41,123 bases of DNA from the IMG/VR virus record IMGVR_UViG_2565956719_000013; one strand, given 5' to 3'. The notes under the pieces are model-generated. The model searched no databases and was not told the DNA's origin. It saw nothing but the letters and a program-made list of their open reading frames with translations. This DNA comes from a virus. Taxonomy: Duplodnaviria > Heunggongvirae > Uroviricota > Caudoviricetes. Position 1 is the stretch's first letter, and each line of letters opens with the position of its first letter. Shown piece by piece: positions 8,773 to 28,897 of this stretch. Made by a program: the position numbers and the translations under genes.

Positions 8773-8777
8773 TAGAA

Positions 8778-8798
8778 GCCCGCAGCGCGGGCTTTTTT
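8778..8798 (+). terminator. intrinsic terminator
   Basis: GCCCGC-AGC-GCGGGC hairpin followed by T6. Confidence 0.7.
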
Positions 8799-8870
8799 GT
8801 GGACGAAACAAAAGTCAGTGCTACACTCATTGACGCCACATTGAGGTGGCTTATAGATGGAAATGTCACA

Positions 8871-9032: not shown

Positions 9033-9054
9033 AAACAAGGCCGCGAAAGCGGCC
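9031..9054 (-). terminator. intrinsic terminator ending the leftward late operon
   Basis: GGCCGC-GAAA-GCGGCC hairpin (9039-9054) with T-tract in minus orientation (A5 at 9031-9035 on + strand). Confidence 0.5.
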
Positions 9055-9055
9055 T

Positions 9056-9067
9056 GTGACATGTCAC
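9056..9067. repeat. 12-bp palindrome GTGACATGTCAC (copy 2)
   Basis: perfect palindrome overlapping TGA stop (9064-9066) of 9064..9360, 1 bp from terminator hairpin. Confidence 0.9.
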
Positions 9068-9360
9068 GTTCCTTTTCTGAATGATAGCCGTTCGAAAAAT
9101 GATGACATTCCACCGCAGACAATAGCAAAGATGATCCCACCAAAGAAGAGAAGGCCAGCCTGCCACCACTCCCACCGCCATACATCCACAGCACCAACCA
9201 TACCAACAATCGCTCCAACAAATGGAATATAGCTCACGATGAAAGCAATGGGGGCTGCAATTATCCAGTGCAATCCCCACCATGATTCAAGCCCAGCCAT
9301 AATTGCTGCCAACTGAAAAAGGCCAACGACGATATAAACAATGAATCCTATCGCTTGCAT
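9064..9360 (-). CDS. small multi-pass membrane protein, hypothetical
   Basis: AGGTGA RBS; 98 aa, 3-4 hydrophobic helices, Trp-rich; last gene of late operon. Confidence 0.55.
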   Translation of the reverse strand: MQAIGFIVYIVVGLFQLAAIMAGLESWWGLHWIIAAPIAFIVSYIPFVGAIVGMVGAVDVWRWEWWQAGLLFFGGIIFAIVCGGMSSFFERLSFRKGT

Positions 9361-9372
9361 GTAGTCACCTAT

Positions 9373-9546
9373 TTACCCAGTAAAAATCAGAGGCCTCCCC
9401 TCAATAAGGCTTGCAACAAGAACTATTCCCTGCACAACAAAGATGAACCAGCAAATAGCTTGAGTCTGAGGGTTAAGAAAATATTTGTAGCGGTCAATAA
9501 ATAACAACCCACCAGAAATTATCACACTCAAAATAATTAAAAACAC
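9373..9546 (-). CDS. small 2-TM membrane peptide, hypothetical (not in ORF track)
   Basis: GTG start 9546 after GGAAG; 57 aa hydrophobic; stop TAA 9375-9373. Confidence 0.3.
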   Translation of the reverse strand: MFLIILSVIISGGLLFIDRYKYFLNPQTQAICWFIFVVQGIVLVASLIEGRPLIFTG

Positions 9547-9555
9547 AACACTTCC

Positions 9556-12030
9556 TTATTGCGGAGTGACATCCTGAGGTCGCCACCAGTATGTCTGATT
9601 AAACTCTTTCTTCGAACGTTGCTCCATTTTACGCAAATAGCCTGGTGAAAAATACTCCTGCATCTGGTTCAAGATCATATGATCGAGAGCCGCCTTTAAG
9701 TACCAGAGATTCGCACCTGGCATCAAACCTTTCCCCAGCTTCACCAGATCACCACCAGTCTGCTCACTCTTCCCTTCCACAGCATTTAACGGTATGCCCT
9801 GAGCAATCTTCACTACGTCATCAACCAGACCAGCTACCGGGCCAAGCATCGACGCCAGCGCGCCGCTTCCGTACCTAGTGTGATCTGACAATAAAAAGTC
9901 ACCGTAAAGGCCAAGGCCACCACCTTTCAGTAGAGCACCAAGCCAGAATTTTGCGGCACCTTCTCCTGTCATCTCTCGAGGATTACGACCAGACGCAAGG
10001 TCGTTAAGTTGCTGCGACAAAGCGCCAAGAATGGTCGTACTGGCAATAAACGTCGCAATATATGCCGCACGCCCACCAGCAGACGGCATACCCATAGCGC
10101 GTGACCAGTGACGCATAACAACCGAGATAGGGAACGATTTAAACAGGAAAACACGTCTCGTTAATTCACCTTTCCATGTTCCACGCTGAATACCAGAACC
10201 GGTTATCAGTTGCTCACGTGCTCCCGGTGTAATAACAGCCATATCAACTTCTTCAGTTACGGCACCGAGCAGTTTACGCATTGCCTCAAATTTCACTCGT
10301 TCAGGCTCACCAAGATGTTTAACTGCTGAATCAGGGATACGCATAATGCTTTCCGGTGTCAGCATCGTATTATTACCGTTCCCCCAGTCCTCCTGTTGCG
10401 CCAGCTTCCATACGCTCCAGTCTGTGTCAGTAATCCCTTTGCTTTTCAGGATACGAAAATCAGAGTCATCGAGGCTACGAAGGTCTGGTGTCCGTGACAC
10501 TACTTCTCCCAGGCTTCCCATCATGGTTACGCCATAGGCGCGCTTGTGCGCATCTGACCATGCTGTAAGCCCACTGGCACGCATTACGGCCGTTGCCGCC
10601 CAACGAGACACTGACGGCCCCATATTATCCATCGCCCAGCGGTTAACGCTGCCAAGTAGAGATTCCATCGCCAGACCAGCGCGGCGCGCCCGCGCAAGTT
10701 CTGTACGGTTCGTTGGGTCCATAGCTTCAAGCTGGTTGCGGAATAACTGGTTCATTGGAAGGTTGGTAACCTTCGCAGACAGATACATGGTTCCAAGATC
10801 AGAGAACGATGACAGCAACGCGGATCCGAGTCTGCTGGCAACCAGCCAGTTGCGGATATTGTCAGACCATCGCGCGATGTGCGGATTCGCTACAGGCTGT
10901 GTCTTTCCGGAAATAAAGTTGTACAGATTCTCTGTGTTGTTCGCCAGCCGCTCGACTTTACCGGTTTTACTCGGGTTAGCTGTTGCCGTTTCTGCCTTCA
11001 CCTGATCAAGAAGAGAGCGGAAAACATGATCGGGGTTTGGGCCATATGTTTCCACCAGTGCAATATCTTTACTGATACCTTCAAGGTGACCGACCATGAT
11101 TTCCCATAGAGAGCGATCGCCATAAAGTTGCTGATATTGCAGATAGGAATCTGCATCTTTGAAATGTATCTGTCGTGATGCATTACCACGGTTAGCACGT
11201 GCGCCGGAAATTCGCATTCCGGTATCAGTAAGCTTATTCAGCCCACCAGTAGCGATCGTGTTATAAGCCTCTCCAAGAAATGCAGACAACTCGGCATCGT
11301 TCATCAGTTGTCCATCGGCTCGGGTATAATATTTGCGATCCAGCTTACCTATAACATCGCTAACCCATTTATCTTTTGATACCGCCCCAACCTTTTCCAT
11401 AGAATGATGTTGAGGGATCCCCCAGTTTTCGAGATAGCCAATGTCCCCACCAGCATCATTAAACCGGCGGCGCAGCAGCTCTGTAACTTCTCTCCACGCC
11501 TTAGCACCTTTTCTTGCTTTAGCATTGCCAGTATTTTGCCCTCGCATTTCATATACCAGATCACGCACGCCAGCTTCATCTTCAAACAGGCCAAAAAAGC
11601 GAGGATCAACTGCTTCAAATGCCTCCTGCAATTGACTCAATGCATAATCACGAGTGGCTTTTGTTCTGGACTCAACAGAGAGGAAATTCGATTTACCGTC
11701 TGCATTAAAAGCAATAGTACGGTTAAGAGCGCCAAGTTTCCCATCAGCCCCTTGATAGCTATTGATAAATTTATCCAATCTCTGACGTGCGGCTATAGTG
11801 AGGGCCACACGACGTTTCTTTAATGCCGCTTCTCGCTGTAATTCTTCAGATGCCAATTGTGCTGCTCGATATAGCCGCTCTGATTCGGAAAGTTGTCTCC
11901 ACGACATCGGGTCATCACGAGCAATGGAGCGCATATTTCGATAAATGCGGTCTTCAATGTTCTGTATTTCTCGCGCCGTTAACGTGCGCTGCGCCGCCTG
12001 CTGAACCGCTTGTATACATTCCTGTCTCAT
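9556..12030 (-). CDS. large internal virion / ejection protein
   Basis: 824 aa; GAGAGG RBS; position after two other large proteins matching T7 gp15/gp16-like core order; hydrophobic segments near C-terminus. Confidence 0.55.
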   Translation of the reverse strand: MRQECIQAVQQAAQRTLTAREIQNIEDRIYRNMRSIARDDPMSWRQLSESERLYRAAQLASEELQREAALKKRRVALTIAARQRLDKFINSYQGADGKLGALNRTIAFNADGKSNFLSVESRTKATRDYALSQLQEAFEAVDPRFFGLFEDEAGVRDLVYEMRGQNTGNAKARKGAKAWREVTELLRRRFNDAGGDIGYLENWGIPQHHSMEKVGAVSKDKWVSDVIGKLDRKYYTRADGQLMNDAELSAFLGEAYNTIATGGLNKLTDTGMRISGARANRGNASRQIHFKDADSYLQYQQLYGDRSLWEIMVGHLEGISKDIALVETYGPNPDHVFRSLLDQVKAETATANPSKTGKVERLANNTENLYNFISGKTQPVANPHIARWSDNIRNWLVASRLGSALLSSFSDLGTMYLSAKVTNLPMNQLFRNQLEAMDPTNRTELARARRAGLAMESLLGSVNRWAMDNMGPSVSRWAATAVMRASGLTAWSDAHKRAYGVTMMGSLGEVVSRTPDLRSLDDSDFRILKSKGITDTDWSVWKLAQQEDWGNGNNTMLTPESIMRIPDSAVKHLGEPERVKFEAMRKLLGAVTEEVDMAVITPGAREQLITGSGIQRGTWKGELTRRVFLFKSFPISVVMRHWSRAMGMPSAGGRAAYIATFIASTTILGALSQQLNDLASGRNPREMTGEGAAKFWLGALLKGGGLGLYGDFLLSDHTRYGSGALASMLGPVAGLVDDVVKIAQGIPLNAVEGKSEQTGGDLVKLGKGLMPGANLWYLKAALDHMILNQMQEYFSPGYLRKMEQRSKKEFNQTYWWRPQDVTPQ

Positions 12031-12035
12031 TTAAT

Positions 12036-13838
12036 TTAACCTCTCAAGAAACACGCCACAGCGACATCAAACAGGCTGGAATCCTGTATTGCCTGCTCAC
12101 TTTCCATGTTCGCTTCATCCAGTACTTCACGCGCACTGCGCGATTGTGGATTACCATCATCATCCAGCACGGTGATTATCATGTCAGGTGATTCAAGCAG
12201 CGAGTCTTCAGCTATGCGCAGATCAATATCTCCTGCCGGATCTGCCATCATCTTTTGTTCTGCCTGTTGCAATATCTTACCGGGCTCAAAAGGAGCTACT
12301 TCGTCTGGCGTCCTGACCTCTGCTGTTTTATAGAATGAAACAGCCTGAGCATTAAGTTCACTTTCTGCCTGCTGTCTCCGAGCCAGTTCTGCTCGAGCTT
12401 CAAAAAACTGACCGCCAGGCTCGTGCGGTGCCAACGCGTTACGGGAAAATTCCAGGCGTTCTTGTGCCTGCCGGATTCGTTGGTCAATATCGCGAAGTCT
12501 GACCTGTTTATCTGATCGAGCACGAGACAAAGCTTTACCGCTGCCGGTTGGCTCTTCTGCAAGAATTTGTGCGCGCTGTTCAGTGAGATTTTCAATAATT
12601 CGTTGGCTATTAGCGATTTCATACTGGTAAACCTGTCTATCGCCACGCGGCAAAAGCTGCGCGGCCTGTTCTTCAAGCAACCGATTTTCTATAGCGCGCG
12701 CCGTTACTCCATCATCTACAGATGACAGAGCCTCATTAACTGCCTGAGACAGCAGACTCTTACGCCCAGGAATTTCACTGAAAGATGCAGGCTCAACAAT
12801 GCTGGCAACGTCTACAGGTCTCCCTTGGCTAACATCAGACATAGCTTTTCGCAGAGCCTGAATGTGAGAATTGCGCGAAAGCACGTTGATCGGCACGCCG
12901 GGAGAAATATCAATTTCAGCATGATGAGCGGCATTCGCCGCCAGTGCAGCATCGATATCAACTGGTGAAAAATTTGGTGCGTTTGTAGACTCGCCGCGAG
13001 AGTTAATAAATCTGCCGACACCACCAAACGCCACCCCAAGAACAGCATCAATAGCAATTGCCTGTCGATCCAACACATCATACTGGTTAGCCATTTCGCT
13101 ATAGCCACCATCACGAAGTGTTTTTGCAGTAAGCCCACGCTGTGCCATACCGAACGCAATATTTGTACCTGCGGCATAGGCAATATCTGGCGTTGCACGT
13201 ACTGCTGTTGCTGCGGCGCGTCGCACTGAACTCTCACCCGTCCGCGCAAGCTGAGCCGCCACACCTTCCGCCAGCGCACCACCAGCACGTAACCCGAGGC
13301 TCATAGGGATCAGTGTTCCGGCACCAGCAGTAATGCCCTGCACTAATCCCGCTTCCTGCGCCGTCCTGAAATCAACACCCTGTGCTGTCAGCCGTTCAAA
13401 CTCAGAAAAACCCTGTAGCGAAGTTACCGCCGCCGCACCTCCGACAGGACCACCGAGCGTTGTACCGACAACAGCCTGCCCGCCCATATCGAACAACCCA
13501 TAAAGAACCTGCCCGGCGGTTCCGGTTGTCGCGGCATCAGGCGTCAGCCGCTTAACCTGCTGCTCTGCTAGTTTTCTCTGCTCGGCAATGTATGAAACTG
13601 AAGTATCATTGAGCGAGGTGTTTTCGTTAATAAACTGAGCAATCGGGGATACGATTTTATCCATCCCTGCCCATAGCAACTGATCTGGCTTTGCCACCAG
13701 CCCGGAGTACAAACCAGACAATGCCGCTCCTACAGCATTGTCGAAAAAACCAACATCGCTGTTAAAGCCCGCTGGATTTGATGCTGCTTCGTCAAGTTGC
13801 TGATTCTGGTTTACTGGATTAAGGCCAAAGTAACTCAT
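12036..13838 (-). CDS. internal virion protein (Gly/Ala-rich)
   Basis: 600 aa; GGAG RBS; ATGA overlap with upstream gene; Gly/Ala-rich N-terminal half. Confidence 0.5.
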   Translation of the reverse strand: MSYFGLNPVNQNQQLDEAASNPAGFNSDVGFFDNAVGAALSGLYSGLVAKPDQLLWAGMDKIVSPIAQFINENTSLNDTSVSYIAEQRKLAEQQVKRLTPDAATTGTAGQVLYGLFDMGGQAVVGTTLGGPVGGAAAVTSLQGFSEFERLTAQGVDFRTAQEAGLVQGITAGAGTLIPMSLGLRAGGALAEGVAAQLARTGESSVRRAAATAVRATPDIAYAAGTNIAFGMAQRGLTAKTLRDGGYSEMANQYDVLDRQAIAIDAVLGVAFGGVGRFINSRGESTNAPNFSPVDIDAALAANAAHHAEIDISPGVPINVLSRNSHIQALRKAMSDVSQGRPVDVASIVEPASFSEIPGRKSLLSQAVNEALSSVDDGVTARAIENRLLEEQAAQLLPRGDRQVYQYEIANSQRIIENLTEQRAQILAEEPTGSGKALSRARSDKQVRLRDIDQRIRQAQERLEFSRNALAPHEPGGQFFEARAELARRQQAESELNAQAVSFYKTAEVRTPDEVAPFEPGKILQQAEQKMMADPAGDIDLRIAEDSLLESPDMIITVLDDDGNPQSRSAREVLDEANMESEQAIQDSSLFDVAVACFLRG

Positions 13839-16348
13839 TGCGGAATATCTCCGGAGAATCTCTGACGCTTCTGTGTCAGATCAAGAACAACAGGAGAACC
13901 ATCATCTTTCAGCAGATAACCAGTACCAAGTTTCACCAGGTACTGACTATCGCCGTAACTTTGCAAACCATACTGACTAGGCGGTGTTTTTATCCCGGTG
14001 CCGACCACTTGTTCATTCCAAGCCTGATTAACCTGCTTATCGAATTGCTCTGCAGACATTCCCCACGGCAAAAGGACATTCCCCATTCCGTTATAGTCAT
14101 GCACGCCACCTGTAGCTACGTTAACAGCCTGCTTCCAGATATCAGTGTCAATTTCGCCTGATATCACGCCTTTTTTCGCCATCACACCAGCGTAATAGTC
14201 CTTTGCGATCTCGTATGCCATTGATGCCCCCTGAGCATCACCAGCAAATGCATCCTTCACCATGTCAGAAAACTCAAGGCGAAGATCAGCATCTTTAGGC
14301 ATCGGAATACCTTTCGCATCATCAGTACCTTTACGAGCCGCCGCGCCAGTAAGAATTGTCTGCGCAGCGGTTTCAGGAGACACGGAAACATCCGGATTAA
14401 ACCAGTTTTTTTCTGCCAAAATACCACCAGGCTTGTCCATCAGTATCCCGGCAACGGCAGCAGATGGAGCGTTGGCACTGATCTGCTGTAGTGCTGACAT
14501 ATACACCTGCCCACCACCAGTGCTCTGCCTGATGGTATCGAGATATGCTGCCTGTAGGGAAACTGGAGCATCACGAAAGAAAACACCGATCTGATTGGCC
14601 TCGTCTTTGGAAAAGAACGTCAGTGGAGTGCCATATGACTTAGCAAGGTCACTGACCTGAGCGGAACGCAAGGCAACGCTCTGTCCAAAGTTATCCTTAT
14701 TGCTCATGTCGATAGGCTTTGTCTGTCCGGAGGCAAGAGAGAACTGCACAGGATCCGACTGCCGCTGCTTTATCACCTGATTTGCAGCCGAAACAACGTT
14801 GTCATAAAGAGCTGCGCGTGCCGCATACCCCTCCCCTGTTTCACCAGTATCCGGGCGTAATTGCTCAACATATGCTGTAATGCTGCTTGTCGGCATGTTG
14901 CGGAAAGAGCCTATATACTGTCCGGCGATCTGCGTATTCTTAAACTCGGTATATCGCAGGTTTCCTTCTCTGACTCCATAAGCTGCAATAAAATCATCCT
15001 CACCAGGTGGGTTAGGAAATTCAACGCCCCGCATATACGCAGCTGTCGCATCGCGAACCTGGCTGTCAATCATCGTTTTATATTCAGCCTGCTGCTGCCG
15101 ACGCAGTTGATCCGCCTGTCGCATAAAACTTGCCTGCGCCTCAGGAGATGCCGCATCGAATGCTGCATTACCGGTATAGCGTTTGGTGTTGGTTGGAATT
15201 GTTGATAAACCAAGTGCTGCACTGACACCAGCAGTTAACTGCTGATCACTGTATGGCTGGCTACCGTTCTCATGATGAATAATGGCTGCACAAAGCGCCT
15301 TCAGGGTATCAGGATTTGATGCATCGAGAGGCTCATCAGCAGAAACGCCAAGTTGTTCGCACACTGATTTGATATACGACATAGTGTCATTTTTATCAGT
15401 GGGCGGTGCCCAGCGATTAATTATCTCGCTGACGGTATCGATACCCTGCCGCTGATACGACATCAGGTTCCGCCCTAATGCACGAATCCCGTGTTCAGGT
15501 GTTTCGAATTTAGCAAATCGACCATCATCACCGGTCTGGCCTACCCACGGATTAGTTTTGCTGTATTCGAGATTTCCTGGGTTATTGTTGCGTATGCCAC
15601 GGGCACGATCGGAATAGCTACTATCTGCTACAGCACGGCGAGCTCCAGCAGCAGTATCACTTAACTCGCCATTACTTTGGATGAATGCGGTCGCATTGTT
15701 TGCCGACCACTGGGACAATGCAGCATCAGCAACCTTCTCTTTAAACTCGATTTTCTTGGCCTGGATTTGCTCGTCACTCCAGCCATGTGCAATGCCGTAA
15801 TCCTCAATTTGCTGGAAAGTTTGCTTATTAGCCAATACGTATGCGGCGTTGTCGCCATACAATGCTGCGGCATTTTTACCATTGTTCAGCAGCGTAGCCT
15901 GAAACTGGCCTTCTTCGTAGGCATTTATTTGCCCTATCTCGTGCCGCCCTGCCTGCGTAGTGAACTGAATGCGCTGCTGCTGCGCCTGCTGCATGAAAGC
16001 ATTACGAGCCTGTTCATCCGGCAGCGACATAGCCAGTTGTTCGACCTGAGCATCAAACTGCTGCGTATACTCCTGACCTTTTCCAATAGCATTTTTCCCT
16101 TTCAGGTTAAGCAATCCTGTTTCAGGATTATTCAGCAGATCACTGCTTATCTGACTGAGGTTAAGAGATGCCTCCTGAGCCAGAGCGATATTGGCACGCT
16201 GTTTTGCCTGACCAAAAACATCAATTGCCTCTGTCCCTGCCCGAACAAAAGCATCACCAATACCTGGCTGAGAAAACGTCTGCAAGCCTGCTGACTGAAC
16301 TCCACGGCTCTGAACCTGACGGCCGGATACTGTTGGTACGACTGGCAT
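13835..16348 (-). CDS. large internal virion protein
   Basis: start moved to ATG 16348 (GGAGG RBS, TAATG overlap with upstream stop); contains GIRNNNPGNL motif of unverified significance. Confidence 0.55.
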   Translation of the reverse strand: MPVVPTVSGRQVQSRGVQSAGLQTFSQPGIGDAFVRAGTEAIDVFGQAKQRANIALAQEASLNLSQISSDLLNNPETGLLNLKGKNAIGKGQEYTQQFDAQVEQLAMSLPDEQARNAFMQQAQQQRIQFTTQAGRHEIGQINAYEEGQFQATLLNNGKNAAALYGDNAAYVLANKQTFQQIEDYGIAHGWSDEQIQAKKIEFKEKVADAALSQWSANNATAFIQSNGELSDTAAGARRAVADSSYSDRARGIRNNNPGNLEYSKTNPWVGQTGDDGRFAKFETPEHGIRALGRNLMSYQRQGIDTVSEIINRWAPPTDKNDTMSYIKSVCEQLGVSADEPLDASNPDTLKALCAAIIHHENGSQPYSDQQLTAGVSAALGLSTIPTNTKRYTGNAAFDAASPEAQASFMRQADQLRRQQQAEYKTMIDSQVRDATAAYMRGVEFPNPPGEDDFIAAYGVREGNLRYTEFKNTQIAGQYIGSFRNMPTSSITAYVEQLRPDTGETGEGYAARAALYDNVVSAANQVIKQRQSDPVQFSLASGQTKPIDMSNKDNFGQSVALRSAQVSDLAKSYGTPLTFFSKDEANQIGVFFRDAPVSLQAAYLDTIRQSTGGGQVYMSALQQISANAPSAAVAGILMDKPGGILAEKNWFNPDVSVSPETAAQTILTGAAARKGTDDAKGIPMPKDADLRLEFSDMVKDAFAGDAQGASMAYEIAKDYYAGVMAKKGVISGEIDTDIWKQAVNVATGGVHDYNGMGNVLLPWGMSAEQFDKQVNQAWNEQVVGTGIKTPPSQYGLQSYGDSQYLVKLGTGYLLKDDGSPVVLDLTQKRQRFSGDIPQ

Positions 16349-16893
16349 TATAATCCTCCGGGTAATCTGGTTCCTGCTGCTGCCCCGATTGGCGCAGGGG
16401 TGCTTTGAGTAAACGGACTCCACGTCCCACCAAACATCTGGTACGCACCGTATGCCTTCAGAGGCGCAGTGAGCAATGTTGTTGCTGCTCCCACATTCCC
16501 CTGTTTACGGGCTGAACTGGCTTCTGCTTTATAGTTGGCAGCCTGAACCTGATAACCGTAAGCCTCGCGTTGCGCGTTATTCACCGTCGTCAGAGAATCA
16601 AGAGCGCCAAACTGGGCAGTGTCGCCAAATATATCCAGCGCGTTACCTGTAGATAAATCAGCGCCGGTAGCCCCCATTGTCGCCGCCTGTGTACCAAGCC
16701 GCTGTCGGGTCTCTCTGCGCCGTTGCTCAGCTTCAGCGTTACCTCTGTTTATTGCATCATTTGCCTGAGCTGTGGCTATATCTGTGTTCGCTTCTGCAAC
16801 CTTCGAGACATACTTTCCCTGTTGGTACTGGGTGTATGCCTGAATGCCACTCATGGCGAGCATTGCGCCACCAGCAATAACCGGATCGCACAT
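16348..16893 (-). CDS. small virion protein, hypothetical
   Basis: GGAGAG RBS; 181 aa Ala/Gly/Gln-rich; TAATG coupling both sides. Confidence 0.5.
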   Translation of the reverse strand: MCDPVIAGGAMLAMSGIQAYTQYQQGKYVSKVAEANTDIATAQANDAINRGNAEAEQRRRETRQRLGTQAATMGATGADLSTGNALDIFGDTAQFGALDSLTTVNNAQREAYGYQVQAANYKAEASSARKQGNVGAATTLLTAPLKAYGAYQMFGGTWSPFTQSTPAPIGAAAGTRLPGGL

Positions 16894-17357
16894 TATTTTC
16901 TCTCCATGTGAAATCTGTGGAAATTAAGACCAAGAGCACCATAAGGCGCGGCTTCTTCAAGCCTGAATCCAAGCCAGTGCAGCCATGCTTTGGCAACATG
17001 GTTTCGCTCGTCGACGTAGTTTTCCAGGCGCGGATAAACTGCCAGCATCTGCTGCAATACAGGGCGGCAGTGGCGAAGAAATGTCTTCTGATATTTTTCA
17101 ATACGGCTGGTTCCTACCAGCCAGGGCGTACCATTGCCACCGATCATTGACGCCGGAGATACGCCAAACATGGTTACCAGTTCTCCGTTCGCAAATCCTG
17201 ACCAGGCCATAGTCGCAGTGCGAAGACCAACACGCAGCGCATCTTCGGTAGTCATCAGCGATACCGCATACAGTTCGTCAATATCAGCCTGACGAACATC
17301 CGGCAAAATCATCTGAAGATGCTCTTCGGTAGCGGGAATAATTTGAACGTCAATCAT
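16893..17357 (-). CDS. hypothetical virion/assembly protein
   Basis: GGGGGA RBS; 154 aa; position equivalent to T7 gp13/gp14. Confidence 0.45.
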   Translation of the reverse strand: MIDVQIIPATEEHLQMILPDVRQADIDELYAVSLMTTEDALRVGLRTATMAWSGFANGELVTMFGVSPASMIGGNGTPWLVGTSRIEKYQKTFLRHCRPVLQQMLAVYPRLENYVDERNHVAKAWLHWLGFRLEEAAPYGALGLNFHRFHMERK

Positions 17358-20756: not shown

Positions 20757-20772
20757 ATACACTCCTGCAATA

Positions 20773-20790
20773 AAGGGGCCGAAGCCCCTT
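20773..20790 (-). terminator. intercistronic hairpin with UUCG tetraloop, possible attenuator
   Basis: minus strand AAGGGGC-UUCG-GCCCCUU followed by UUUAUUG, immediately before RBS of 20433..20756. Confidence 0.4.
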
Positions 20791-20806
20791 GTCGGATTCG
20801 CGAGGC

Positions 20807-21142
20807 TTACACGCCTAGTTCTTTACGCTTATCTGCGATCTTCTCGCGGAGCGTTTCGGCTTTAGCGTTATGGTGTGGCTTCTCGTTAAAGAGCAATTCG
20901 TACTCTTCACGGAGCTTATCCAGTTCACCATCATCTGACACATCGTTGATGATTTTGGTGCTGGTTGCTGCCATTGACACCTTTCCTGCAACTTTTGCTT
21001 TTGCCTGTCTGGCTGCATCGTTAACAGGTTCCAGTGCGCTACCAGGCTCACCTTCGTATTCGATTTCTGCCCCCTCCGGCCACAGTGTGTTATGGATATG
21101 AGAGAGGCGCAGAACGCGGTATCTTGGTTTCTCACCTGACAT
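20807..21142 (-). CDS. hypothetical protein
   Basis: start moved to ATG 21142 (AAGGTGA RBS); 111 aa, Lys/Glu-rich C-terminus. Confidence 0.45.
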   Translation of the reverse strand: MSGEKPRYRVLRLSHIHNTLWPEGAEIEYEGEPGSALEPVNDAARQAKAKVAGKVSMAATSTKIINDVSDDGELDKLREEYELLFNEKPHHNAKAETLREKIADKRKELGV

Positions 21143-21152
21143 CGATATCACC

Positions 21153-21590
21153 TTAACCAGTTACTTTTGAGCGGATCGGATACGGCGTATTGGCATCAAC
21201 ATCAAGACTGATACCAGCAGTGAATTCGCCAGCCGTTAGCGGGCCAGTTGCGACGGAGTAGTTAACACGCAGATATCGCTGAACACCGGCAGGCACCTTT
21301 GCAGAAACAACTCGTTTACCTGCTGTCAGGGCGGTCTTTGCCAGTGCACCACTATCATAAATAGTGGTCCATGAGCTGTTATCCTCACTCGTCTGCAACT
21401 GGATGTTTACAGTTGCATCACCGCTTGCTGCGGCGGCTGTGTTAACCAGCGCCCAAAACTCAAGCGGGTAACCCACGCCGATATCACGACGTTTTCCGTC
21501 AATTGGACCGAGATCGATTACGTCAGTAGAAGCCGCGGTATCAGTTACCGCCTGTGCTTCGGAGAACATCAACAGTTTGTCGGTGATCAT
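21153..21590 (-). CDS. hypothetical head-associated protein
   Basis: GGAGAAAG RBS; 145 aa; directly after capsid gene. Confidence 0.5.
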   Translation of the reverse strand: MITDKLLMFSEAQAVTDTAASTDVIDLGPIDGKRRDIGVGYPLEFWALVNTAAAASGDATVNIQLQTSEDNSSWTTIYDSGALAKTALTAGKRVVSAKVPAGVQRYLRVNYSVATGPLTAGEFTAGISLDVDANTPYPIRSKVTG

Positions 21591-21641
21591 CTTCTTTCTC
21601 CATTAGTGGGTCTGTTACGACCCACAGGTTAATAACAGGCG

Positions 21642-22634
21642 TTACACCACGCGGGCTTCTGTTTCCAGAAGCGCATCAGTTTCACGGATTGGTACACCAC
21701 GGAATGAAGTCCACCACTCGCCTTCTGTCTCTTTTACGCTGATAGCCAGAGATGTTTTCTCCAGAGACTGCAGATCAAGAGCCTGGCCTACAGTGCGGTT
21801 CATGTAGAACACCGGGCGGCCCATGCCACGGTTTGGAATGCGATGCAGTGCTTTAACCATCAACTTCGCAATATTTGCGGCAGAGGATGGTTCTGAAAGA
21901 TTGCTGACATCGATGTTTGCAATGCGAACAACATAACGCCAGTCACGCAGAGCAAGTCCGTTATCCCATTTGTAATGGGTGCGATAGCCTTCGTACTTGC
22001 CGCCATTAGCATCTTCCAGTGTCACCTGGCCTTTATCTTCCATCTGGATGCCAGCCTTCTGCCCTTTCGGGAAGATGCCATGCACGGTGTTTTCGCCCCA
22101 CACCACTAACCAGATTGAGGTGTTATCTGTACCCGTGCCACCAGCATCAATGATGTTCTGAGCATTACCCGCAGACAGGCTGGAATAGCGGGAGGACAGT
22201 CCCATAAACTGCTGAGGATTAACGCTGGAATCACCATAAAACAGCGTCTGCGCCATCTGCTGATTCATCGCTTCAATAAATGCGCGGTCTTCAGAAAGGC
22301 GGAATTCGGCGGTATTGCCGTTCAGATCAGCCAGTGACTTATCGACTTCCGCATAGGTTTCCAGCATGCCAACGGAATCGGTTACCTGCACTGTGGTTGA
22401 TTTGCTTGGCTGTACGCCATAGTTCAGCAAACGCCAGGTAGCTGAAGGTAAACCAGAACGAATGGTGGTTCGGTGTCCGGTAGGAAGGTTCCCTTCGACA
22501 AAAGGCATATCCTGAAGGATCGGGTTAGTTTGACCGAGAAGCTCGATAATCTTATCGACTTTCCCGTTTGGATCGACGCGCTTACCCCAGTCAGCCAGCG
22601 TTAGCGCAGTTAAGCCTTTAACAGCCATTGTCAT
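21642..22634 (-). CDS. major capsid protein (by position and size)
   Basis: 330 aa; GAGAGGAA RBS; follows scaffold-like gene; stem-loop between it and next gene. Confidence 0.55.
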   Translation of the reverse strand: MTMAVKGLTALTLADWGKRVDPNGKVDKIIELLGQTNPILQDMPFVEGNLPTGHRTTIRSGLPSATWRLLNYGVQPSKSTTVQVTDSVGMLETYAEVDKSLADLNGNTAEFRLSEDRAFIEAMNQQMAQTLFYGDSSVNPQQFMGLSSRYSSLSAGNAQNIIDAGGTGTDNTSIWLVVWGENTVHGIFPKGQKAGIQMEDKGQVTLEDANGGKYEGYRTHYKWDNGLALRDWRYVVRIANIDVSNLSEPSSAANIAKLMVKALHRIPNRGMGRPVFYMNRTVGQALDLQSLEKTSLAISVKETEGEWWTSFRGVPIRETDALLETEARVV

Positions 22635-22642
22635 TTCCTCTC

Positions 22643-23338
22643 TTATTTGCCATAGAGCACTTCGGCCGCACTACGCTGGCCTTCATTACTACCGGTGACC
22701 ATGCCATCTTCAGACATCGCCTTTCCGATTTTCACGAACGTTTTGACCAGATCAGGGTGATTACCCAGCCCGGTGGTGTTCAGATATTCTTTGAGTTCAG
22801 GTGTCCCGAACTGGTCAAGCGCACGCTGTGCGGCGCTAAGGTTAGAAATCAACTTGTCGCCACCGATTTCTTTGTCAGCTTTTACATCAGCAGCCCACTG
22901 CTCGGTTGTTTTCTGCCAGGCTTCTGCCTGGCGCTGCTGCACACCTGCCAGAATCTTCGGATAAGCATCAACCAGCTTTTGCGCTTGCTCGTTGGTCAGG
23001 TTTAGTTCTCGCGCCACCGGCTCGAATTCCTTCAACGCTTCTGTATCCAGCTCTACGCCTTCGGCAGCCTGAAACTCGTACTTCTCAGGCGCACCCTCTG
23101 GTTTATCGCCGTCCTTTTTTTCATCCTGCTTATCGTTTTCAGGCTTTTTGTCATCAGCAGGTTTATCGCCATCAGCAACAGGTTGTGGCTTATCACCTTC
23201 CAGTTGTGATGGATCACCAACTGGAGCAGGGTTATCACCTGCAGGCGCTGACGGTTCTGACGCAGCCGGAGCTGCTCCACCATCGACTGGTTGCTCATTG
23301 CAAAGACGGCGATACAGCAAACGCTCAAATAAATTCAT
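22643..23338 (-). CDS. scaffolding protein
   Basis: start moved to ATG 23338 (AGGAG RBS); acidic, low-complexity Pro/Asp/Lys-rich N-terminus then helical region; between portal and capsid. Confidence 0.55.
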   Translation of the reverse strand: MNLFERLLYRRLCNEQPVDGGAAPAASEPSAPAGDNPAPVGDPSQLEGDKPQPVADGDKPADDKKPENDKQDEKKDGDKPEGAPEKYEFQAAEGVELDTEALKEFEPVARELNLTNEQAQKLVDAYPKILAGVQQRQAEAWQKTTEQWAADVKADKEIGGDKLISNLSAAQRALDQFGTPELKEYLNTTGLGNHPDLVKTFVKIGKAMSEDGMVTGSNEGQRSAAEVLYGK

Positions 23339-23340
23339 GA

Positions 23341-23637
23341 TCACTCCTGTTCACTGGCCTCTTTGGCCATCTTCAAATACTGTTCAGGGCAATGCGCCAT
23401 AACGCGCTGAAACAGTTCAAGCGCCAGATTGCGTTGCCCCTCATTAAATGCCATTGCCATAGCGTCCATCGGTGAGATAGCGGAAAACACACGGCCTTTC
23501 TCCAGCACAGACCAGACAACGCGACGCCCCTGTTCACTGCTCATGACAAAGCGAATGTCATCAATTTCACGCTGCTCCATGTCACGTTGCTTACGGGCGT
23601 TTTCTTCTTTCAGTTGATCGTCTTCGTAATCTGTCAT
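23341..23637 (-). CDS. hypothetical protein
   Basis: 98 aa; ATGA overlap with portal stop. Confidence 0.45.
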   Translation of the reverse strand: MTDYEDDQLKEENARKQRDMEQREIDDIRFVMSSEQGRRVVWSVLEKGRVFSAISPMDAMAMAFNEGQRNLALELFQRVMAHCPEQYLKMAKEASEQE

Positions 23638-25313
23638 TGTGATTGCCCACCCTGACCACTAACTGCATTCGCCATAGCTGACAAAACACTCGGATCCGAA
23701 GTTTTAGCTTCGCTTAGCGTCTTGGCGCCCTGTGCCGCCGCCATCCCCATCGCCATCATTTGTTGCTGCTGTTGCTGCTGTGCCCGTTGCTGGCGAGCCT
23801 GCTCAACCTGTTCCTGCGGAACAATGACGGTTGGAGACACTCCGGACATATCAGCGAATGCATCGATCGCCTGATCAACGTTGAGTTTGTCGAGAGCTTC
23901 TGGTTTCGCTTGCGCAAGTTGACCAATGAAGTTAACCGTGGACGCCAGACTGGACAGGCCGATAGACTTCTGCGCCTGAGCCATGACGGAAATGTATTCG
24001 ACCTTCAGGGGCATACCTTCCATCACGTCTGGCGGTGGCGGCAGCATGTTTTTACGCACCATCATCGAGAAAGAGCGGTCAATGAGAGGATTAAGACATT
24101 CGTCGTTCAGACGCTCCAGAACCGGCCCCAACATCAGAAGTTTTTCTTCTTTCATTTCGATCACCGCTTCAACAGGCATCGAGCGGGTATTGATGTTCTG
24201 CAACATCATGAACAGATCGACAAAGTAGGCGCTGTTAATGATTTGACGAGTGTCCTGAATGTCTGCCACCAAATCTGCTGTACTGGGGTTAACCAGATAA
24301 GCAGGCCTGAAACCATCCTGACCAGTAATCTGATCGATATACGTGATGTCGCCAGGAAGAAGGGAGGCACGCTGATTCTTGAGGGAAGTCGGAGCAACCA
24401 TCGGCGGATTGGTGGCTTTATCAATCAACTGCGACTTGCGCTTCTGGAGAAGCTGCAATGCCTTAACAGGTCCAAGCGCCAGCATACCCGGGCATGATGA
24501 TCCATAAACATCTTCGCCGTTAACTTCCCAGCGCGGAGCCATAATTGGAAACTCATCGAATCCGGACTCACGCAACAACTTGTCGTTATCGCCACCAACC
24601 TCGTAATAAACCGATTTGAATGGCTTGTTCTTGCTATCCAGCTTCGATGTATCGCGGTCAATGTTCGGGTAAACCGAATGCATCACTTCAATCCACTTCT
24701 CGTAGGTTCCGCTTTCCCACATGCTTTTTACGGATTCGCTGACGTTATTTAGCCCGAACTCCTGAACAAGCTGACGAACAGTCATAGAGAACTTGCGAAA
24801 ACAGGTGTCCACACTGCCACGAGGTGAGTTAGCCAGGTAGTAACTGCCTATCGGGAATGGCATTGTGCGAATGATGTCCTCGTCATCCTCCAGCACTGCC
24901 ATTGCACCAGTGCTGTATGTGCCGAGGCTTCCGTATAACTGCGGCAGCGACTGATAGAGATTCGACTTATTGAACATATCGTTCATGCGGTTCTGCACCG
25001 CCTCAAGCCACAACTTAACAGGGCCATAATCCATCATTTCAGGATCTGGCGTAGCCAGGCGAAACCACGGACGCGCGGGGCTTGTGATGCCTGACATCAT
25101 GCCGCTGGCGAGAGTGCGCGCCGCCATAGTCCCGGTCGAATCAATAATGCGTGTATTGCGTCGATCGTTACGGTTGGCCTCAGAAGTCAGAAAGCGGGAA
25201 CCACGCGGGTTGATGTAATCACTCAACTCGCGCCAGTGCGGCTCGAACGACTGACGCTCGCTTTCAAGTTGTGCGAACTGTTTGTTCAATCGCTCTTTAG
25301 TTGTTTCCGCCAT
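23634..25313 (-). CDS. portal (head-tail connector), T7 gp8-like
   Basis: 559 aa; GGAG RBS; C-terminal QQQQQMMAMGMAAAQGAKT resembles T7 gp8 C-terminus; follows terminase. Confidence 0.8.
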   Translation of the reverse strand: MAETTKERLNKQFAQLESERQSFEPHWRELSDYINPRGSRFLTSEANRNDRRNTRIIDSTGTMAARTLASGMMSGITSPARPWFRLATPDPEMMDYGPVKLWLEAVQNRMNDMFNKSNLYQSLPQLYGSLGTYSTGAMAVLEDDEDIIRTMPFPIGSYYLANSPRGSVDTCFRKFSMTVRQLVQEFGLNNVSESVKSMWESGTYEKWIEVMHSVYPNIDRDTSKLDSKNKPFKSVYYEVGGDNDKLLRESGFDEFPIMAPRWEVNGEDVYGSSCPGMLALGPVKALQLLQKRKSQLIDKATNPPMVAPTSLKNQRASLLPGDITYIDQITGQDGFRPAYLVNPSTADLVADIQDTRQIINSAYFVDLFMMLQNINTRSMPVEAVIEMKEEKLLMLGPVLERLNDECLNPLIDRSFSMMVRKNMLPPPPDVMEGMPLKVEYISVMAQAQKSIGLSSLASTVNFIGQLAQAKPEALDKLNVDQAIDAFADMSGVSPTVIVPQEQVEQARQQRAQQQQQQQMMAMGMAAAQGAKTLSEAKTSDPSVLSAMANAVSGQGGQSQ

Positions 25314-25327
25314 TTCAATGACTCCGG

Positions 25328-25534
25328 TTACTGACCAAGCAGCGTTTTACCGCTGGTATTAGCGGTTGATGTGTCACCCTGAGAACCGGTAAGCAGCGTA
25401 GAACTACGACCAGCAGCAGCGCGACGGCGACGAGTTTCTTCGTCGCGGGCATCAACAACGGCGGCATCCTGCTCCTGTGGTGCTGCCTGAACTTCTGGTG
25501 TTGCAGGCACTGACGGTGAGCTACCCATGCACAT
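25328..25534 (-). CDS. small hypothetical protein
   Basis: ATG 25534 with GGAG RBS in a 14-nt initiation region almost identical to the portal one (CGGAGTCATTGA(A/T)ATG). Confidence 0.4.
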   Translation of the reverse strand: MCMGSSPSVPATPEVQAAPQEQDAAVVDARDEETRRRRAAAGRSSTLLTGSQGDTSTANTSGKTLLGQ

Positions 25535-25624
25535 ATCAATGACTCCGTACGCAATTAAATTATTACCAATTTAACCACATATGATTTATTTATCGTAGAT
25601 AGTTGACATTTAACGCACGAATTA

Positions 25625-25639
25625 TTACCTTTCAGGTAA
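25625..25639. promoter_or_regulatory. operator-like dyad TTACC-N5-GGTAA
   Basis: ATTACCtttcaGGTAAG, ~90 bp upstream of the portal-operon first ORF. Confidence 0.55.
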
Positions 25640-25961
25640 GCAAATGGTTCATTCCGGTTATTAACCTGACTGGCTTGTCGTTAAATTGAACAGGTGGAGT
25701 GAGCTTTTATTTTGAGCAGTACGGCGTATGGCACATGCGCCGATAGCGGTCTGGATACGTTTAAGGGGCACCCTCCCTTGCTCGGGCAAACGAACCAGGT
25801 AGCCGGAATGTGCAAGTCGAGCGGTTTTATTCCGCGCACGGGGATTCACCATCCCGGCGATTCGGTGTGACGCCTCGGAAGAGACGAGGGTACAACGATG
25901 AGAGCATTTATGGAGCCGCGACAAAGTGTGGTGCCTTAACAGGCTAAGTGCTCTCAGCGTT

Positions 25962-26038
25962 GTGGCATTAGCTCAGTCGGACAGAGCAACCGCCTTCTAA
26001 GCGGTTGGTCGCAGGTTCGAATCCTGCATGCCACGCCA
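25962..26038 (+). tRNA. tRNA-Arg (anticodon UCU)
   Basis: 77 nt; acceptor stem GTGGCAT/ATGCCAC, anticodon stem ACCGC/GCGGT with loop CTTCTAA, T-arm GCAGG-TTCGAAT-CCTGC, discriminator G, CCA encoded. Confidence 0.85.
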
Positions 26039-26081
26039 GAATCACGCCTAAGGACCGTGATGCCAGAAGTTCCAGGTGCTT

Positions 26082-26123
26082 GGCGGTGATGGTTTCCCTT
26101 GAAGGACTATCACCGCCCTTTTT
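26082..26123 (+). terminator. intrinsic terminator after tRNA
   Basis: GGCGGTGAT (26082-26090) / ATCACCGCC (26109-26117) stem, T5 at 26119-26123. Confidence 0.7.
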
Positions 26124-26241
26124 ACAGCAGGACGCCATTGCGATGACTTCATGCTGTAAACCAGTACAGCCACGGAAGGCATAACTCATTGCTTCCAGTT
26201 CGCCCGGTTCGCAGGGCATTTTTTTAAGGTGAGATTAGACT

Positions 26242-26613
26242 ATGAGTGAAAAAGACATTGAATCTGAAATTCAGGCTAAAGGTTTAGCCGCGCCGCGCGT
26301 TACGCCAGACCATATCGAGAGCATTATTGCTCAGGAGGCATATTTCACAGCAGAAGATGGTGCCTTTGGCGTAGCCATAAAAGCGAAACATACTGGCGGA
26401 GAGGTAAACTACCAGCCGCACGAATCACTTTCTCTGCTGACGTTCTGCGTCCTGGTGCTGCGCAACGGCTTCACCGTCACCGGAGAGAGCGCCTGTGCAA
26501 GCCCGGAAAACTTTGATGCAGAAATTGGTCGGAAGATTGCCCGACAGAATGCTGTAAACAAAATCTGGATGCTTGAAGGTTACTTGCTGAAGCAGAAGTT
26601 AAGCGAGCAATAA
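26242..26613 (+). CDS. Gp49-like small phage protein (N4 Gp49 / Sf6 gp66 family, from memory)
   Basis: AAGGTGAG RBS; 123 aa; C-terminal pattern FDAEIGRKIARQNAVNKIWMLEGYLL recalled for this family. Confidence 0.45.
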   Translation: MSEKDIESEIQAKGLAAPRVTPDHIESIIAQEAYFTAEDGAFGVAIKAKHTGGEVNYQPHESLSLLTFCVLVLRNGFTVTGESACASPENFDAEIGRKIARQNAVNKIWMLEGYLLKQKLSEQ

Positions 26614-26617
26614 CACC

Positions 26618-26629
26618 GTGACATATCAC
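26618..26629. repeat. near-palindrome GTGACATATCAC (copy 3, one mismatch)
   Basis: 5 bp after Gp49-like stop and 4 bp before terminator hairpin. Confidence 0.8.
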
Positions 26630-26633
26630 AAAC

Positions 26634-26660
26634 AGCCAGCCTATGAGCTGGCTTTGTTTT
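26634..26660. terminator. terminator between convergent Gp49-like gene and large terminase
   Basis: AGCCAGC (26634-26640) / GCTGGCT (26647-26653), loop CTATGA, then TTTGTTTT. Confidence 0.55.
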
Positions 26661-26703
26661 ATCCTCATCAGAGGATATCAACAACATTATCCCCTCAAGC
26701 GGA

Positions 26704-28179
26704 TTAAGCATAGGGATCGTAATCTGTAATGGCCCTTCCCTGCTGGCTTTGCTGTCCTGGTATATTTATGCGTTTCGAGACCGGGAAAGCAAACGTCAGC
26801 AGTAGCGCATCGCCTTTACCCGGCGAACGCCCAAGCCGCTCCTTGATATCTTCCTTCGGTTCGATAACGATTTTACCGTCCACTCGAACTTTGTACTCTG
26901 CCGCCGACAGGTCGTCCGCTGTTTCCTGGTCATCCAGCATGCCGCCCAGCCTCAGCCATGTCTTGCATGAGTTGAACATCTCCCCACGCTTGTTGAGCAT
27001 CTGCGGGTCAGTAGACGCGCCACCGAACGGAACAAGTTGCCATGTACGACCCCAGCCGTCACCGATTGACTTCAAACCGGTTCCGTAACCGAAGTCGATG
27101 AACACCGCGTCAGCCTGATACTGGTCTTCAAAGTCAGCGATACGCTTCGCCATAATCAGATCGTCGGTAGTCTTGTTGCCAGTCCACAGCACCTTACTGT
27201 GTAGCCCCTGCCGCAGGTATATCACCGCGTCATCAACGCCTGAATATGCCGGGTCAACACCGATTATCACCGGAGCATGTGCCACCTGCGCAGCGGTTAC
27301 CACCCGTTTCATTGCCTCGTCAGTAAGACCGGTAGGGATAAACTGCAATTCAGATGCATCAGGGAATATGCCACGCACACGGATTTTAACGAAGTCGCTA
27401 TCTTCCCCGTAGTCATCAACCCATTTCTGCAACTGCTGTTTGTTGGTGCCTTCCACCGTCCTGCTGTCAATCTGCGCAGTTTTCCAGCGGTGTTTGTATT
27501 TGCGGAAACATTCACGGAAACGCCCGGTGTTACGTGTAGGGTTTCCGAAAGCCACCCAGATAATCTCAGTGTCTTCGTCCGTTAGCGCACCCTCGGCAAC
27601 TTCCCACACCAGATCCGCAATGTTCGACGCTTCATCAAATACCACGATGATGCGTTTACGCTCGTTGTGTAGTCCGGCGAATGCCTCAGTGTTGTGCTCA
27701 GACCAGGGGATTGCGTCAGCTCGCCACCGCTTGTCGTGCCCAGGGTCATTGCTGTACATCGCGGTAGCGGTACAGGTAAACCAGTCTTTCGTGATAGCAA
27801 GGTTTGACCACTTGATAATTTCCGGCCAGGTCTTCGTTCGTAGCTGGTTGTCGGTGTTGGCGGTCACCACGACCTTACAATCCTCGCAAGTGGACATGCC
27901 CCAGTTGATCAGCATTGAGATGAATGCGGATTTACCAATACCGTGACCAGAAGCACGTGCCAGCATAAGCGGCTGATATCGCGTCTCTGGATTCTGCAGG
28001 TGATCACGTATCTCTCGGAACGCATCAGCCTGCCACTGACGTGGGCCGGTGGCATGTGCCAGTTCAGTCCCCTCTTCCCCCCATGGGAACGCATAGAGGG
28101 CATAGCCAAGCGGATCGTGAGTGAACCCTGCAATATCCTCGATTAACTGCTCTTCAGGAGATAACGCTGTATCTGTCAC
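26704..28179 (-). CDS. terminase large subunit
   Basis: 491 aa; Walker A-like ARASGHGIGKS and Walker B-like IIVVFDEAS; ATGA overlap with small subunit. Confidence 0.85.
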   Translation of the reverse strand: MTDTALSPEEQLIEDIAGFTHDPLGYALYAFPWGEEGTELAHATGPRQWQADAFREIRDHLQNPETRYQPLMLARASGHGIGKSAFISMLINWGMSTCEDCKVVVTANTDNQLRTKTWPEIIKWSNLAITKDWFTCTATAMYSNDPGHDKRWRADAIPWSEHNTEAFAGLHNERKRIIVVFDEASNIADLVWEVAEGALTDEDTEIIWVAFGNPTRNTGRFRECFRKYKHRWKTAQIDSRTVEGTNKQQLQKWVDDYGEDSDFVKIRVRGIFPDASELQFIPTGLTDEAMKRVVTAAQVAHAPVIIGVDPAYSGVDDAVIYLRQGLHSKVLWTGNKTTDDLIMAKRIADFEDQYQADAVFIDFGYGTGLKSIGDGWGRTWQLVPFGGASTDPQMLNKRGEMFNSCKTWLRLGGMLDDQETADDLSAAEYKVRVDGKIVIEPKEDIKERLGRSPGKGDALLLTFAFPVSKRINIPGQQSQQGRAITDYDPYA

Positions 28180-28775
28180 TGATTGCCATCCTGACGTTCT
28201 TTCAGTCTCTTCCTGGCTGCCGCTATGCGATCAGCAATTGTCACATTCACATTAACATCCAGGCGTTCTTTGAATGCGTTGACGTCGACGTGCTTACCAA
28301 TCAGTTCGAGGTTCTTCACCTTGTCAGGCCATTTAATTTTTTTGAGGATGCCAACCAGCTCTTTCTCGTCTCCACGGCCTTCGAACATGTCGGCCAGTTC
28401 GAAACCTGTCAGGTACTGCCGCCAGACCTTAGGCCATTCCGAGACCGGCTTGATGCTCATATCGTCGTTGAGAATGTCAATCACGTCCATCTGGTCGATC
28501 TCCACCAGGCGCATGAGAACGTAATCAGCACTGACGCGCATTCGTTTGTTGCGCTCCTCCATCAACTCGGCAATCCGTTTTTGAATGCGTTCATCGCGCA
28601 TCATGACACTGGCTTTAACTGCCGCTGTATTTGGGGAGAATCCTGCGTTAATCGCTGCCTGAGTCTGGTTTTCAGGCGTTTTGATGTATGACTGGCAATA
28701 AGCCTCCTGCATTGCTGTTAGTGGCTTAAATTGCGTTGATTTGCGTTTATAGGTTTTAGGTTCAGCAGGCATCAT
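28176..28775 (-). CDS. terminase small subunit
   Basis: start moved to ATGATG 28775-28770 (MMPAEPK...); immediately upstream of large terminase. Confidence 0.65.
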   Translation of the reverse strand: MMPAEPKTYKRKSTQFKPLTAMQEAYCQSYIKTPENQTQAAINAGFSPNTAAVKASVMMRDERIQKRIAELMEERNKRMRVSADYVLMRLVEIDQMDVIDILNDDMSIKPVSEWPKVWRQYLTGFELADMFEGRGDEKELVGILKKIKWPDKVKNLELIGKHVDVNAFKERLDVNVNVTIADRIAAARKRLKERQDGNQ

Positions 28776-28782
28776 AACCACC

Positions 28783-28814
28783 GTGGTAATAGTTACCGTT
28801 GTGGTAATAGTACC
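28783..28814. repeat. two direct copies of GTGGTAATAGT(T)ACC upstream of terS
   Basis: 28783-28797 and 28801-28814; each is a GGTAA-N3/4-TACC inverted arrangement. Confidence 0.8.
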
Positions 28815-28818
28815 ATGC

Positions 28819-28844
28819 AAAATAAAGCCGCCATAGTTGGCGGC
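28819..28844 (-). terminator. intrinsic terminator immediately upstream of terS
   Basis: GCCGCC (28827-28832) / GGCGGC (28839-28844), loop ATAGTT; minus-strand T-tract UUUAUUUU (28826-28819). Confidence 0.6.
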
Positions 28845-28885
28845 AGTATTCAAAACCCATCAAATTCATCATGCATAATCTACTC

Positions 28886-28897
28886 GTGACATGTCAC
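28886..28897. repeat. 12-bp palindrome GTGACATGTCAC (copy 1)
   Basis: perfect palindrome overlapping TGA stop (28894-28896) of the Cys-rich gene, 41 bp before terminator. Confidence 0.9.

Follow-up and report, generated by a model that had tools for sequence, protein, structure and literature searches.

Ribbon-helix-helix (RHH) repressors such as Arc, Mnt, CopG and the ParD/TacA-type antitoxins are small proteins with a strand-helix-helix core and a basic N-terminal segment that read a short dyad-symmetric target adjoining their gene, classically in the form of tandem or extended operators. MatP, the organizer of the Ter macrodomain of E. coli, contacts matS via an RHH as well, the 13-bp matS consensus being GTGACATTGTCAC, or GTGAC-RNY-GTCAC (PMC8669397). 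We analyzed a 41,123-nt stretch of viral DNA (IMG/VR record IMGVR_UViG_2565956719_000013; hereafter the window, meaning the whole stretch), an epsilon15/phiV10-like temperate podovirus prophage (genus Uetakevirus) whose late genes are carried by the minus strand. In this window a 12-bp palindrome, GTGACATGTCAC, overlaps the stop codon of a small "transcriptional regulator" gene and recurs at two further junctions beside terminators (table 1). Sequence comparison makes it reasonably probable that the general form of the palindrome, GTGAC-NN-GTCAC, is the cognate binding site of the 112-aa product of the gene at 28894-29232. Palindromic operators read by small dimeric DNA-binding proteins are a kind of system already known; what would be unusual here is the location of the operator. 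Unlike the sites of RHH repressors, this one lies at the 3' end of the regulator gene, in its stop codon, and not at a promoter, consists of a single 12-bp element and has further copies at operon ends.

The window contains three matches to the 12-mer at one mismatch or less against 0.10 expected, and none of 100 dinucleotide shuffles reached three. A sequence scan agreed with the earlier note on the positions of the two exact copies and of the one-mismatch copy, GTGACATATCAC, and the terminators that the note had placed beside them were recovered as hairpins 41 nt and 0–1 nt from the exact copies and 4 nt from the degenerate one, the last next to a tRNA-Arg gene, as had also been claimed. The note further described both exact copies as overlapping a stop codon in the register GTG-TGA; both do share bases with a TGA on the minus strand (register G-TGA-CATGTCAC; open reading frames 28894-29235 and 9064-9360), but the codon before the TGA at 9067 is ACG. 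By our own estimate, chance alone would yield dozens of repeated 12-mers in 41 kb and about 0.01 repeated perfect palindromes; because a repeated 12-mer alone means little in 41 kb, the decisive evidence is comparative. A chance repeat is ruled out by the shuffles together with the synteny and the spacer control given below. The palindrome is also not an intrinsic terminator in its own right, being AT-centered and devoid of a T-tract of its own, and the terminator stems are separate from it, 0–41 nt away.

The linkage of gene and site across phages is a matter of observation. In a library of 1.84 billion proteins, with one representative per 50%-identity cluster, 157 representatives match the regulator family at an E value of 0.001 or less. 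Members of the family are carried by temperate phages that infect Escherichia, Salmonella, Klebsiella, Yersinia, Vibrio, Aeromonas and marine γ-proteobacteria. Among 122 non-identical 3' contexts of regulator homologues, down to about 34% identity, 107 carry the motif within 60 nt after the stop codon, an association like that of RHH targets with their genes to judge by sequence, and in 99 it overlaps the TGA in a single register. The last sense codon among the linked homologues encodes seven different residues (V, L, M, P, A, T or S), so that retention of the site leaves the choice of C-terminal residue open. The motif stands directly after the homologues in the Pectobacterium myovirus ZF40, in the lambda-like phage Chlobot and, as GTGACTGGTCAC, after gene 46 of N15; it likewise lies at or overlapping the stop codon of the homologues in Paraglaciecola and Tolumonas prophages and in the IMG/VR loci of P0137 and P0213, whose identities to the window protein are about 44% and about 34%, respectively; the IMG/VR homologues with the motif at the stop span 34–48% identity. 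All nine complete genomes fetched that encode the gene contain one to three copies, whereas lambda and P22, which lack it, contain none.

The geometry of the motif is equally constrained. The fetched loci, 2.56 Mb in all, hold 252 copies of GTGAC-NN-GTCAC where about 2.4 would be expected, whereas the same arms with spacers of 0, 1 or 3–8 bp occur zero to three times each and swapped or other control palindromes zero to four times. The arms are invariant, and the center varies by lineage (AT, TG/CA, GC, AC, AG, GG, CG, TT), is AT in Uetakeviruses and is uniform within the genome in 83 of the 88 loci that have two or more copies; the flanking base on either side is biased (Y...R). Since the arms are invariant, the 2-bp spacer is strict, only the center varies and the RNA fold is negligible (see below), this geometry is the signature that a DNA site read by a symmetric dimer would be expected to leave. 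The SlmA site GTGAGTACTCAC and the CRP site TGTGA-N6-TCACA are alike in their outer bases but differ in center or spacing.

Within the genus the sites occupy constant places. When relatives were searched for the 12-mer, the same three junctions were found in every Uetakevirus examined: phiV10, epsilon15, the Enterobacter phage Tyrion and SPN1S carry it, exact or with one mismatch, at all three syntenic positions, even though the surrounding sequences do not align, and of 80 close IMG/VR relatives practically all have site A and the majority site C. At site B the 12-mer and the GGCCGC/GCGGCC stem form an invariant island between non-homologous flanks, the gene upstream (at 9064-9360 in the window) differing among phages; at site C the 12-mer alone is invariant and the terminator stem varies. 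The constraint at site C is, as far as the alignments indicate, weaker than at site A because independent arm mutations occur there in close relatives, at least three different single-base changes being found among close E. coli relatives (loci L010, L013, L017, L018, L030, L044 and L053) and the window, whose own variant is that of L013 and L018.

These comparisons revise what the earlier note had made of the arrangement. Overlap with a stop codon is not a shared feature of the copies, for at the 9056 site phiV10, Tyrion and SPN1S have the motif 1–7 nt after a TAA or TAG, and the overlap matters only at the regulator gene. Nor do the copies bracket one late operon: three transcription units have one at their 3' end, namely the early-right operon (site A), the gp03-like gene at its convergent junction with terS-terL (site C) and the structural operon at its convergent junction with ant (site B). 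Each palindrome lies 5' of its terminator when read in the direction that bears the T-tract. Read the other way at B and C, from the converging gene, the hairpin comes first and the palindrome follows within 0–5 nt, with a weak T-tract at most; that of hairpin C is good on the plus strand (26654-26664) and weaker on the minus strand. Away from the regulator gene, a perfect GC hairpin lies within 6 nt of the motif in 62 of 80 distinct contexts. The suggestion that the 12-mer is a termination-factor site or a junction sequence thus holds insofar as it is a conserved junction element beside terminators, and it missed the tie to the small regulator gene; a protein-binding role is, from the sequence comparisons, the best reading of this junction sequence.

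The regulator itself has little resemblance to curated families. It matched nothing in Pfam (no family at an E value of 1 or less for the window protein), NCBIfam or the sequences of the PDB, and among 39 family members compared with curated RHH families the matches were marginal only (RHH_5 in two, best E value 0.013; RepB-RCR_reg in two; RHH_1 in one). The AF2 model reached a pLDDT of 91 with a diverse alignment and of 56 with 15 close sequences only, and predicts, from the N-terminus onward, a basic helix, an extended stretch, a pair of helices of which the second is long, and a Cys-rich C-terminal region. The best structural matches of the model are RHH proteins. A putative DNA-binding, RHH-like protein is a reasonable reading; unlike RHH repressors, it has an extra Cys-rich C-terminal module. 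In the alignment of the 39 sequences only R8, C79 and C82 are invariant, and R13, L59, P87 and C99 nearly so. The searchable literature gave no description of the motif or of the regulator family, an earlier mention in the epsilon15 genome paper being possible, and the GenBank records of phiV10 and epsilon15 annotate terminators and other operators and not the palindrome.

A conserved host protein, either MatP or another reader of GTGA...TCAC, could instead bind the palindrome, the phage gene being a mere neighbor. The arms of the motif are identical to those of matS and are invariant over hosts from Enterobacterales to Vibrionales, Aeromonadales and Alteromonadales, which is also the range of MatP; that arms stay identical across regulators only about 34% identical would be unusual for a co-evolving operator and fits a host factor equally well. 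However, matS is 13 bp long with a 3-bp center and the phage motif strictly 12 bp, the matS-type spacing being found in one copy against 252 with the 2-bp spacing. The motif moreover accompanies one phage gene into phages that are otherwise unrelated, neither lambda nor P22 has it, and a central dinucleotide that is uniform per genome and differs by lineage fits a phage-specific reader better, so that we regard a host factor as unlikely. No similarity of the regulator to MatP was detected either: hhalign gave a probability of 0.2 against E. coli MatP, local alignments had a median z of about 0 against shuffles, the Pfam search of the family returned neither PF06303 nor PF17414, both of which real MatP proteins carry, a search seeded with MatP matched near-identical MatPs only, and the phage protein has its Cys-rich C-terminal region in place of the four-helix bundle and coiled coil of MatP. 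A role in RNA, as a hairpin or a protein-binding element of the RAT or nut kind that modulates terminator formation or mRNA stability, would agree with the fact that in each case the transcript holds the motif 0–41 nt upstream of the terminator hairpin. But GUGACAUGUCAC folds at −1.2 kcal/mol, no better than shuffles (z about 0), on which ground a hairpin was rejected; more than 250 copies include no compensatory arm change, and it is the would-be loop that varies; and, in contrast to RAT, nut or put targets, the motif has no stable RNA structure and no covariation, does not overlap the terminator stems and often has no terminator nearby. We consider an RNA element extremely improbable.

The palindrome might also be a short boundary at which accessory cassettes are exchanged, kept by history and not by binding. 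All three sites lie exactly at homology breaks between relatives, and different cassettes follow them: an umuD-like gene with a LexA box at A in L103-type phages, gp03 and tRNA at C, and ant/Bro at B. Yet any functional intergenic element flanked by variable cassettes would resemble a junction, 12 bp is very short for homologous exchange, and such a history leaves unexplained both the dyad symmetry with its exact 2-bp spacer and invariant arms around a varying center, and the fact that a single gene family carries the motif in its stop codon, whether in N15, ZF40, Vibrio or marine prophages; a purely recombinational origin is therefore rather unlikely. The order regulator–terminator–terS in Uetakeviruses, which recalls the lambda Q–pR'–tR' and Gram-positive RinA–terS arrangements, raises the alternative of a late-gene switch, in which the motif would serve as a −35-like element (GTGACA on both strands) or a qut-like site and a Q-like or RinA/Ogr-like regulator would carry transcription past terminator A into terS. 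The copy of Vibrio phage K233 located 19 nt upstream of terS and weak GTGACA-N18-CATGAT promoter-like matches in our scan would fit, but the number of those matches is at the level of shuffles. There is no −10 element at a fixed distance, nor any conserved promoter or pause element beside the site, the information right after the motif being about 0.1–0.5 bit; the start region of terS has its own operators downstream of terminator A; and sites B and C stand at operon ends. The position upstream of the packaging genes is seen in Uetakeviruses and not in N15, ZF40, Chlobot or a Yersinia P2-like phage, and ZF40, N15 and Chlobot carry gene and site far from terS together with Q-like antiterminators of their own. 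The regulator shows no homology to the Q or RinA proteins, and its family-library matches included none that point to RinA/ArpU or Ogr/Delta activators. We judge such a switch improbable. A pac or cos site was discarded as well, as there are three copies per genome and those of N15 and ZF40 are not near terminase genes.

That the motif is the operator of the regulator, placed at the 3' ends of three units and insulating their transcription, is the best overall explanation, to which we give about an even chance; conservation, strict spacing, linkage to the gene and proximity to terminators are observed, whereas binding of the palindrome by the protein and the effect of that binding are our inference. 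The regulator would be made from the early-right operon and accumulate during lytic growth, and its dimer would read the two invariant 5-bp half-sites, of which one pair is built into the 3' end of its own gene and two lie at the 3' ends of other lytic units. Occupied sites could then act as barriers or insulators: transcripts would less often run past operon boundaries, and convergent or antisense transcription would be restrained where terL meets gp03 and where the late operon meets ant. The regulator may also bridge sites and, bound at the stop codon of its gene, might act back on its mRNA or on transcription continuing into terS. A barrier effect at operon boundaries, whether by reinforcing termination or by blocking convergent and antisense transcription, we put forward only tentatively. 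It recalls, purely by analogy, DNA-bound roadblocks of the LacI or CodY type and bidirectional terminators at convergent genes: at convergent junctions the palindrome lies 0–6 bp from the hairpin, on the side without the T-tract. Several observations weigh against this explanation. About 12% of the homologues have no adjacent site, and the arm mutations at site C in close relatives, the window included, imply that the site is dispensable at least there. Extra copies in other phages lie inside coding sequences, as do some of those in ZF40 and N15, or just upstream of the next ribosome-binding site and not at terminators, as in N15, Chlobot and Vibrio phage K233, in the last of which terS is among the genes that follow; the link to terminators may thus be a by-product of compact intergenic regions. 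It is very unlikely, though conceivable by analogy, that regulator and sites form a miniature phage-borne counterpart of MatP and matS, in which an RHH protein would read half-sites of the matS type, bridge or mark a few sites and so organize or insulate the phage genome, perhaps interfering with host SMC (MukBEF)-type or Ter-linked processes instead of acting as an ordinary transcription factor.

The features of the window are collected in table 1, the gene map being taken from the phiV10 and epsilon15 records. In phage orientation, the early-right operon ends with the regulator gene and is followed by a terminator and terS-terL, an accessory region on the opposite strand, the structural operon (portal to tail), a second opposite-strand accessory region (ant/Bro-N) and the tail fiber gene. 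The megablast matches of positions 8000-12000, at 98–99% identity, are phiv142-3, HEMP4, phiV10 and O157 typing phages. The palindrome is distinct from the "repressor" sites of the epsilon15 record, which have the form ATTACC-N5-GGTAAT; the window has 14 matches to these at two mismatches or less against 0.96 expected. Because such matches precede both the start of terS and the portal operon, the late genes seem to be split into separate repressor-controlled units, which suggests that the late operons are under direct control of the prophage repressor.

Table 1. Sites, signals and genes of the window discussed in the text.
Feature	Coordinates	Strand	Remarks
PAL A	28886..28897		exact GTGACATGTCAC; overlaps TGA of regulator gene (28896-28894)
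PAL B	9056..9067		exact GTGACATGTCAC; overlaps TGA of 9064-9360 gene
PAL C	26618..26629		degenerate GTGACATATCAC, one arm mismatch; 4 nt from hairpin C; exact in most relatives
Intrinsic terminator A	28818..28844	-	stem 28844-28827, then TTTATTTTG; 41 nt downstream of PAL A
Intrinsic terminator B	9029..9055	-	stem 9055-9038, then TTGTTTTTAAC; abuts PAL B (0-1 nt); at convergent junction with plus-strand ant-containing accessory genes
Hairpin C	26634..26653		scored on both strands; between convergent terL (-) and gp03-like gene (+)
Regulator gene	28894..29232	-	112 aa; phrog_536; phiV10 gp55 / epsilon15 gp49 homologue; last gene of early-right operon
terS-terL operon	26704..28775	-	between PAL A and PAL C
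gp03-like accessory gene	26242..26613	+	phrog_322; transcript crosses PAL C into terminator C
phrog_3075 gene	9064..9360	-	98 aa; last of structural (late) operon here; TGA overlaps PAL B
ant-containing accessory genes	7269-9032	+	convergent with structural operon at site B
tRNA-Arg (TCT) gene	25962-26038		beside site C, in the accessory region that separates terL from the portal operon
Tandem epsilon15-type "repressor" operator-like sites (n = 2)	28774..28808		one mismatch each; just upstream of/over terS start (ATG 28775)
ATTACC-N5-GGTAAT matches	28774-28808, 25624-25640, 6619-6635, 32568-32584, 35611-35627, others

Further copies and contexts were recorded in the related phages. The GenBank records of phiV10 (L001, 39101-39104 / 1-8) and Tyrion (L003, 41755-41760) are linearized inside the palindrome, and site A, split across the record ends, was therefore missed by a linear scan. 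A one-mismatch copy, GTGACATGGCAC, recurs some 5.3 kb downstream of the regulator in a gp08-like coding sequence (44 loci besides L001, 5306); since the window lacks it and its conservation goes with that of the coding context, this copy probably has no function. SPN1S has a fourth near-copy, GTGACATGTCAT (L087, 26722), which overlaps the Rz stop codon near the attachment-site region. In a group of IMG/VR relatives (L103, 6340-6745, and many other loci) the interval from the regulator to terS holds an insertion that begins 6 nt past the palindrome and comprises a promoter with a canonical LexA box, CTGTTTAAATATACAG, and a UmuD-like gene (phrog_3469). N15 has three copies, all with a TG/CA center (L086, 551, 5238 and 11270, corresponding to N15 28550, 33237 and 39269): one after gene 46, one between gene 33 and the terminator upstream of gene 32, and one in repA. 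The Yersinia P2-like phage (L162, 11670-11720 and 8073-8318) has a regulator homologue with no adjacent site, and an exact copy and a near-copy, GTGACATGGCAC, whose starts are about 33 bp apart, lie downstream of a large SMC-like accessory gene. Sites of the 13-bp matS type, GTGACACCGTCAC, occur in Vibrio phage K233 (L163, 19491) and in a Photobacterium prophage (L288, at +590 and −6095 from the regulator stop), the latter having a regulator homologue and no 12-bp copy.

A scan of IMG/VR with the 14-mer TGTGACATGTCACG returned at least 120 stretches, and 72 of the matches listed are regulator or Uetakevirus contexts. The others listed fall in the first codons of a Q-like gene, one conserved coding context, iteron arrays and short flanks, and they look like background at roughly the chance level for a collection of this size. 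In three IMG/VR contigs (L186, L191 and L197) three different open reading frames, unrelated to the regulator family and looking Cro/YdaS-like (helix-turn-helix) by eye, end in ..G-TGA-CATGTCAC, which may be coincidence or point to a second gene family that uses the site. In high-GC phage contigs (L182, L201, L211, L230 and L268) the 12-mer lies inside arrays of GTCACGC/GCGTGAC half-site repeats within an open reading frame, and these arrays look like origin iterons of an unrelated system.

If the pairing of regulator and palindrome is true, a widespread phage protein family with no assigned function would gain a DNA target and a probable role, and the layout would be unusual in that an operator sits in the stop codon of its regulator's own gene and is repeated at operon 3' ends beside terminators, suggesting protein-assisted insulation of convergent units in compact phage genomes. 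Its resemblance to matS prompts the question of whether phages use the recognition codes by which hosts organize their chromosomes. The 12-bp element also provides a marker for operon boundaries and cassette-insertion points in Uetakevirus-type prophages, a group that takes in O157-typing phages and at least one phage associated with Stx (TL-2011b).

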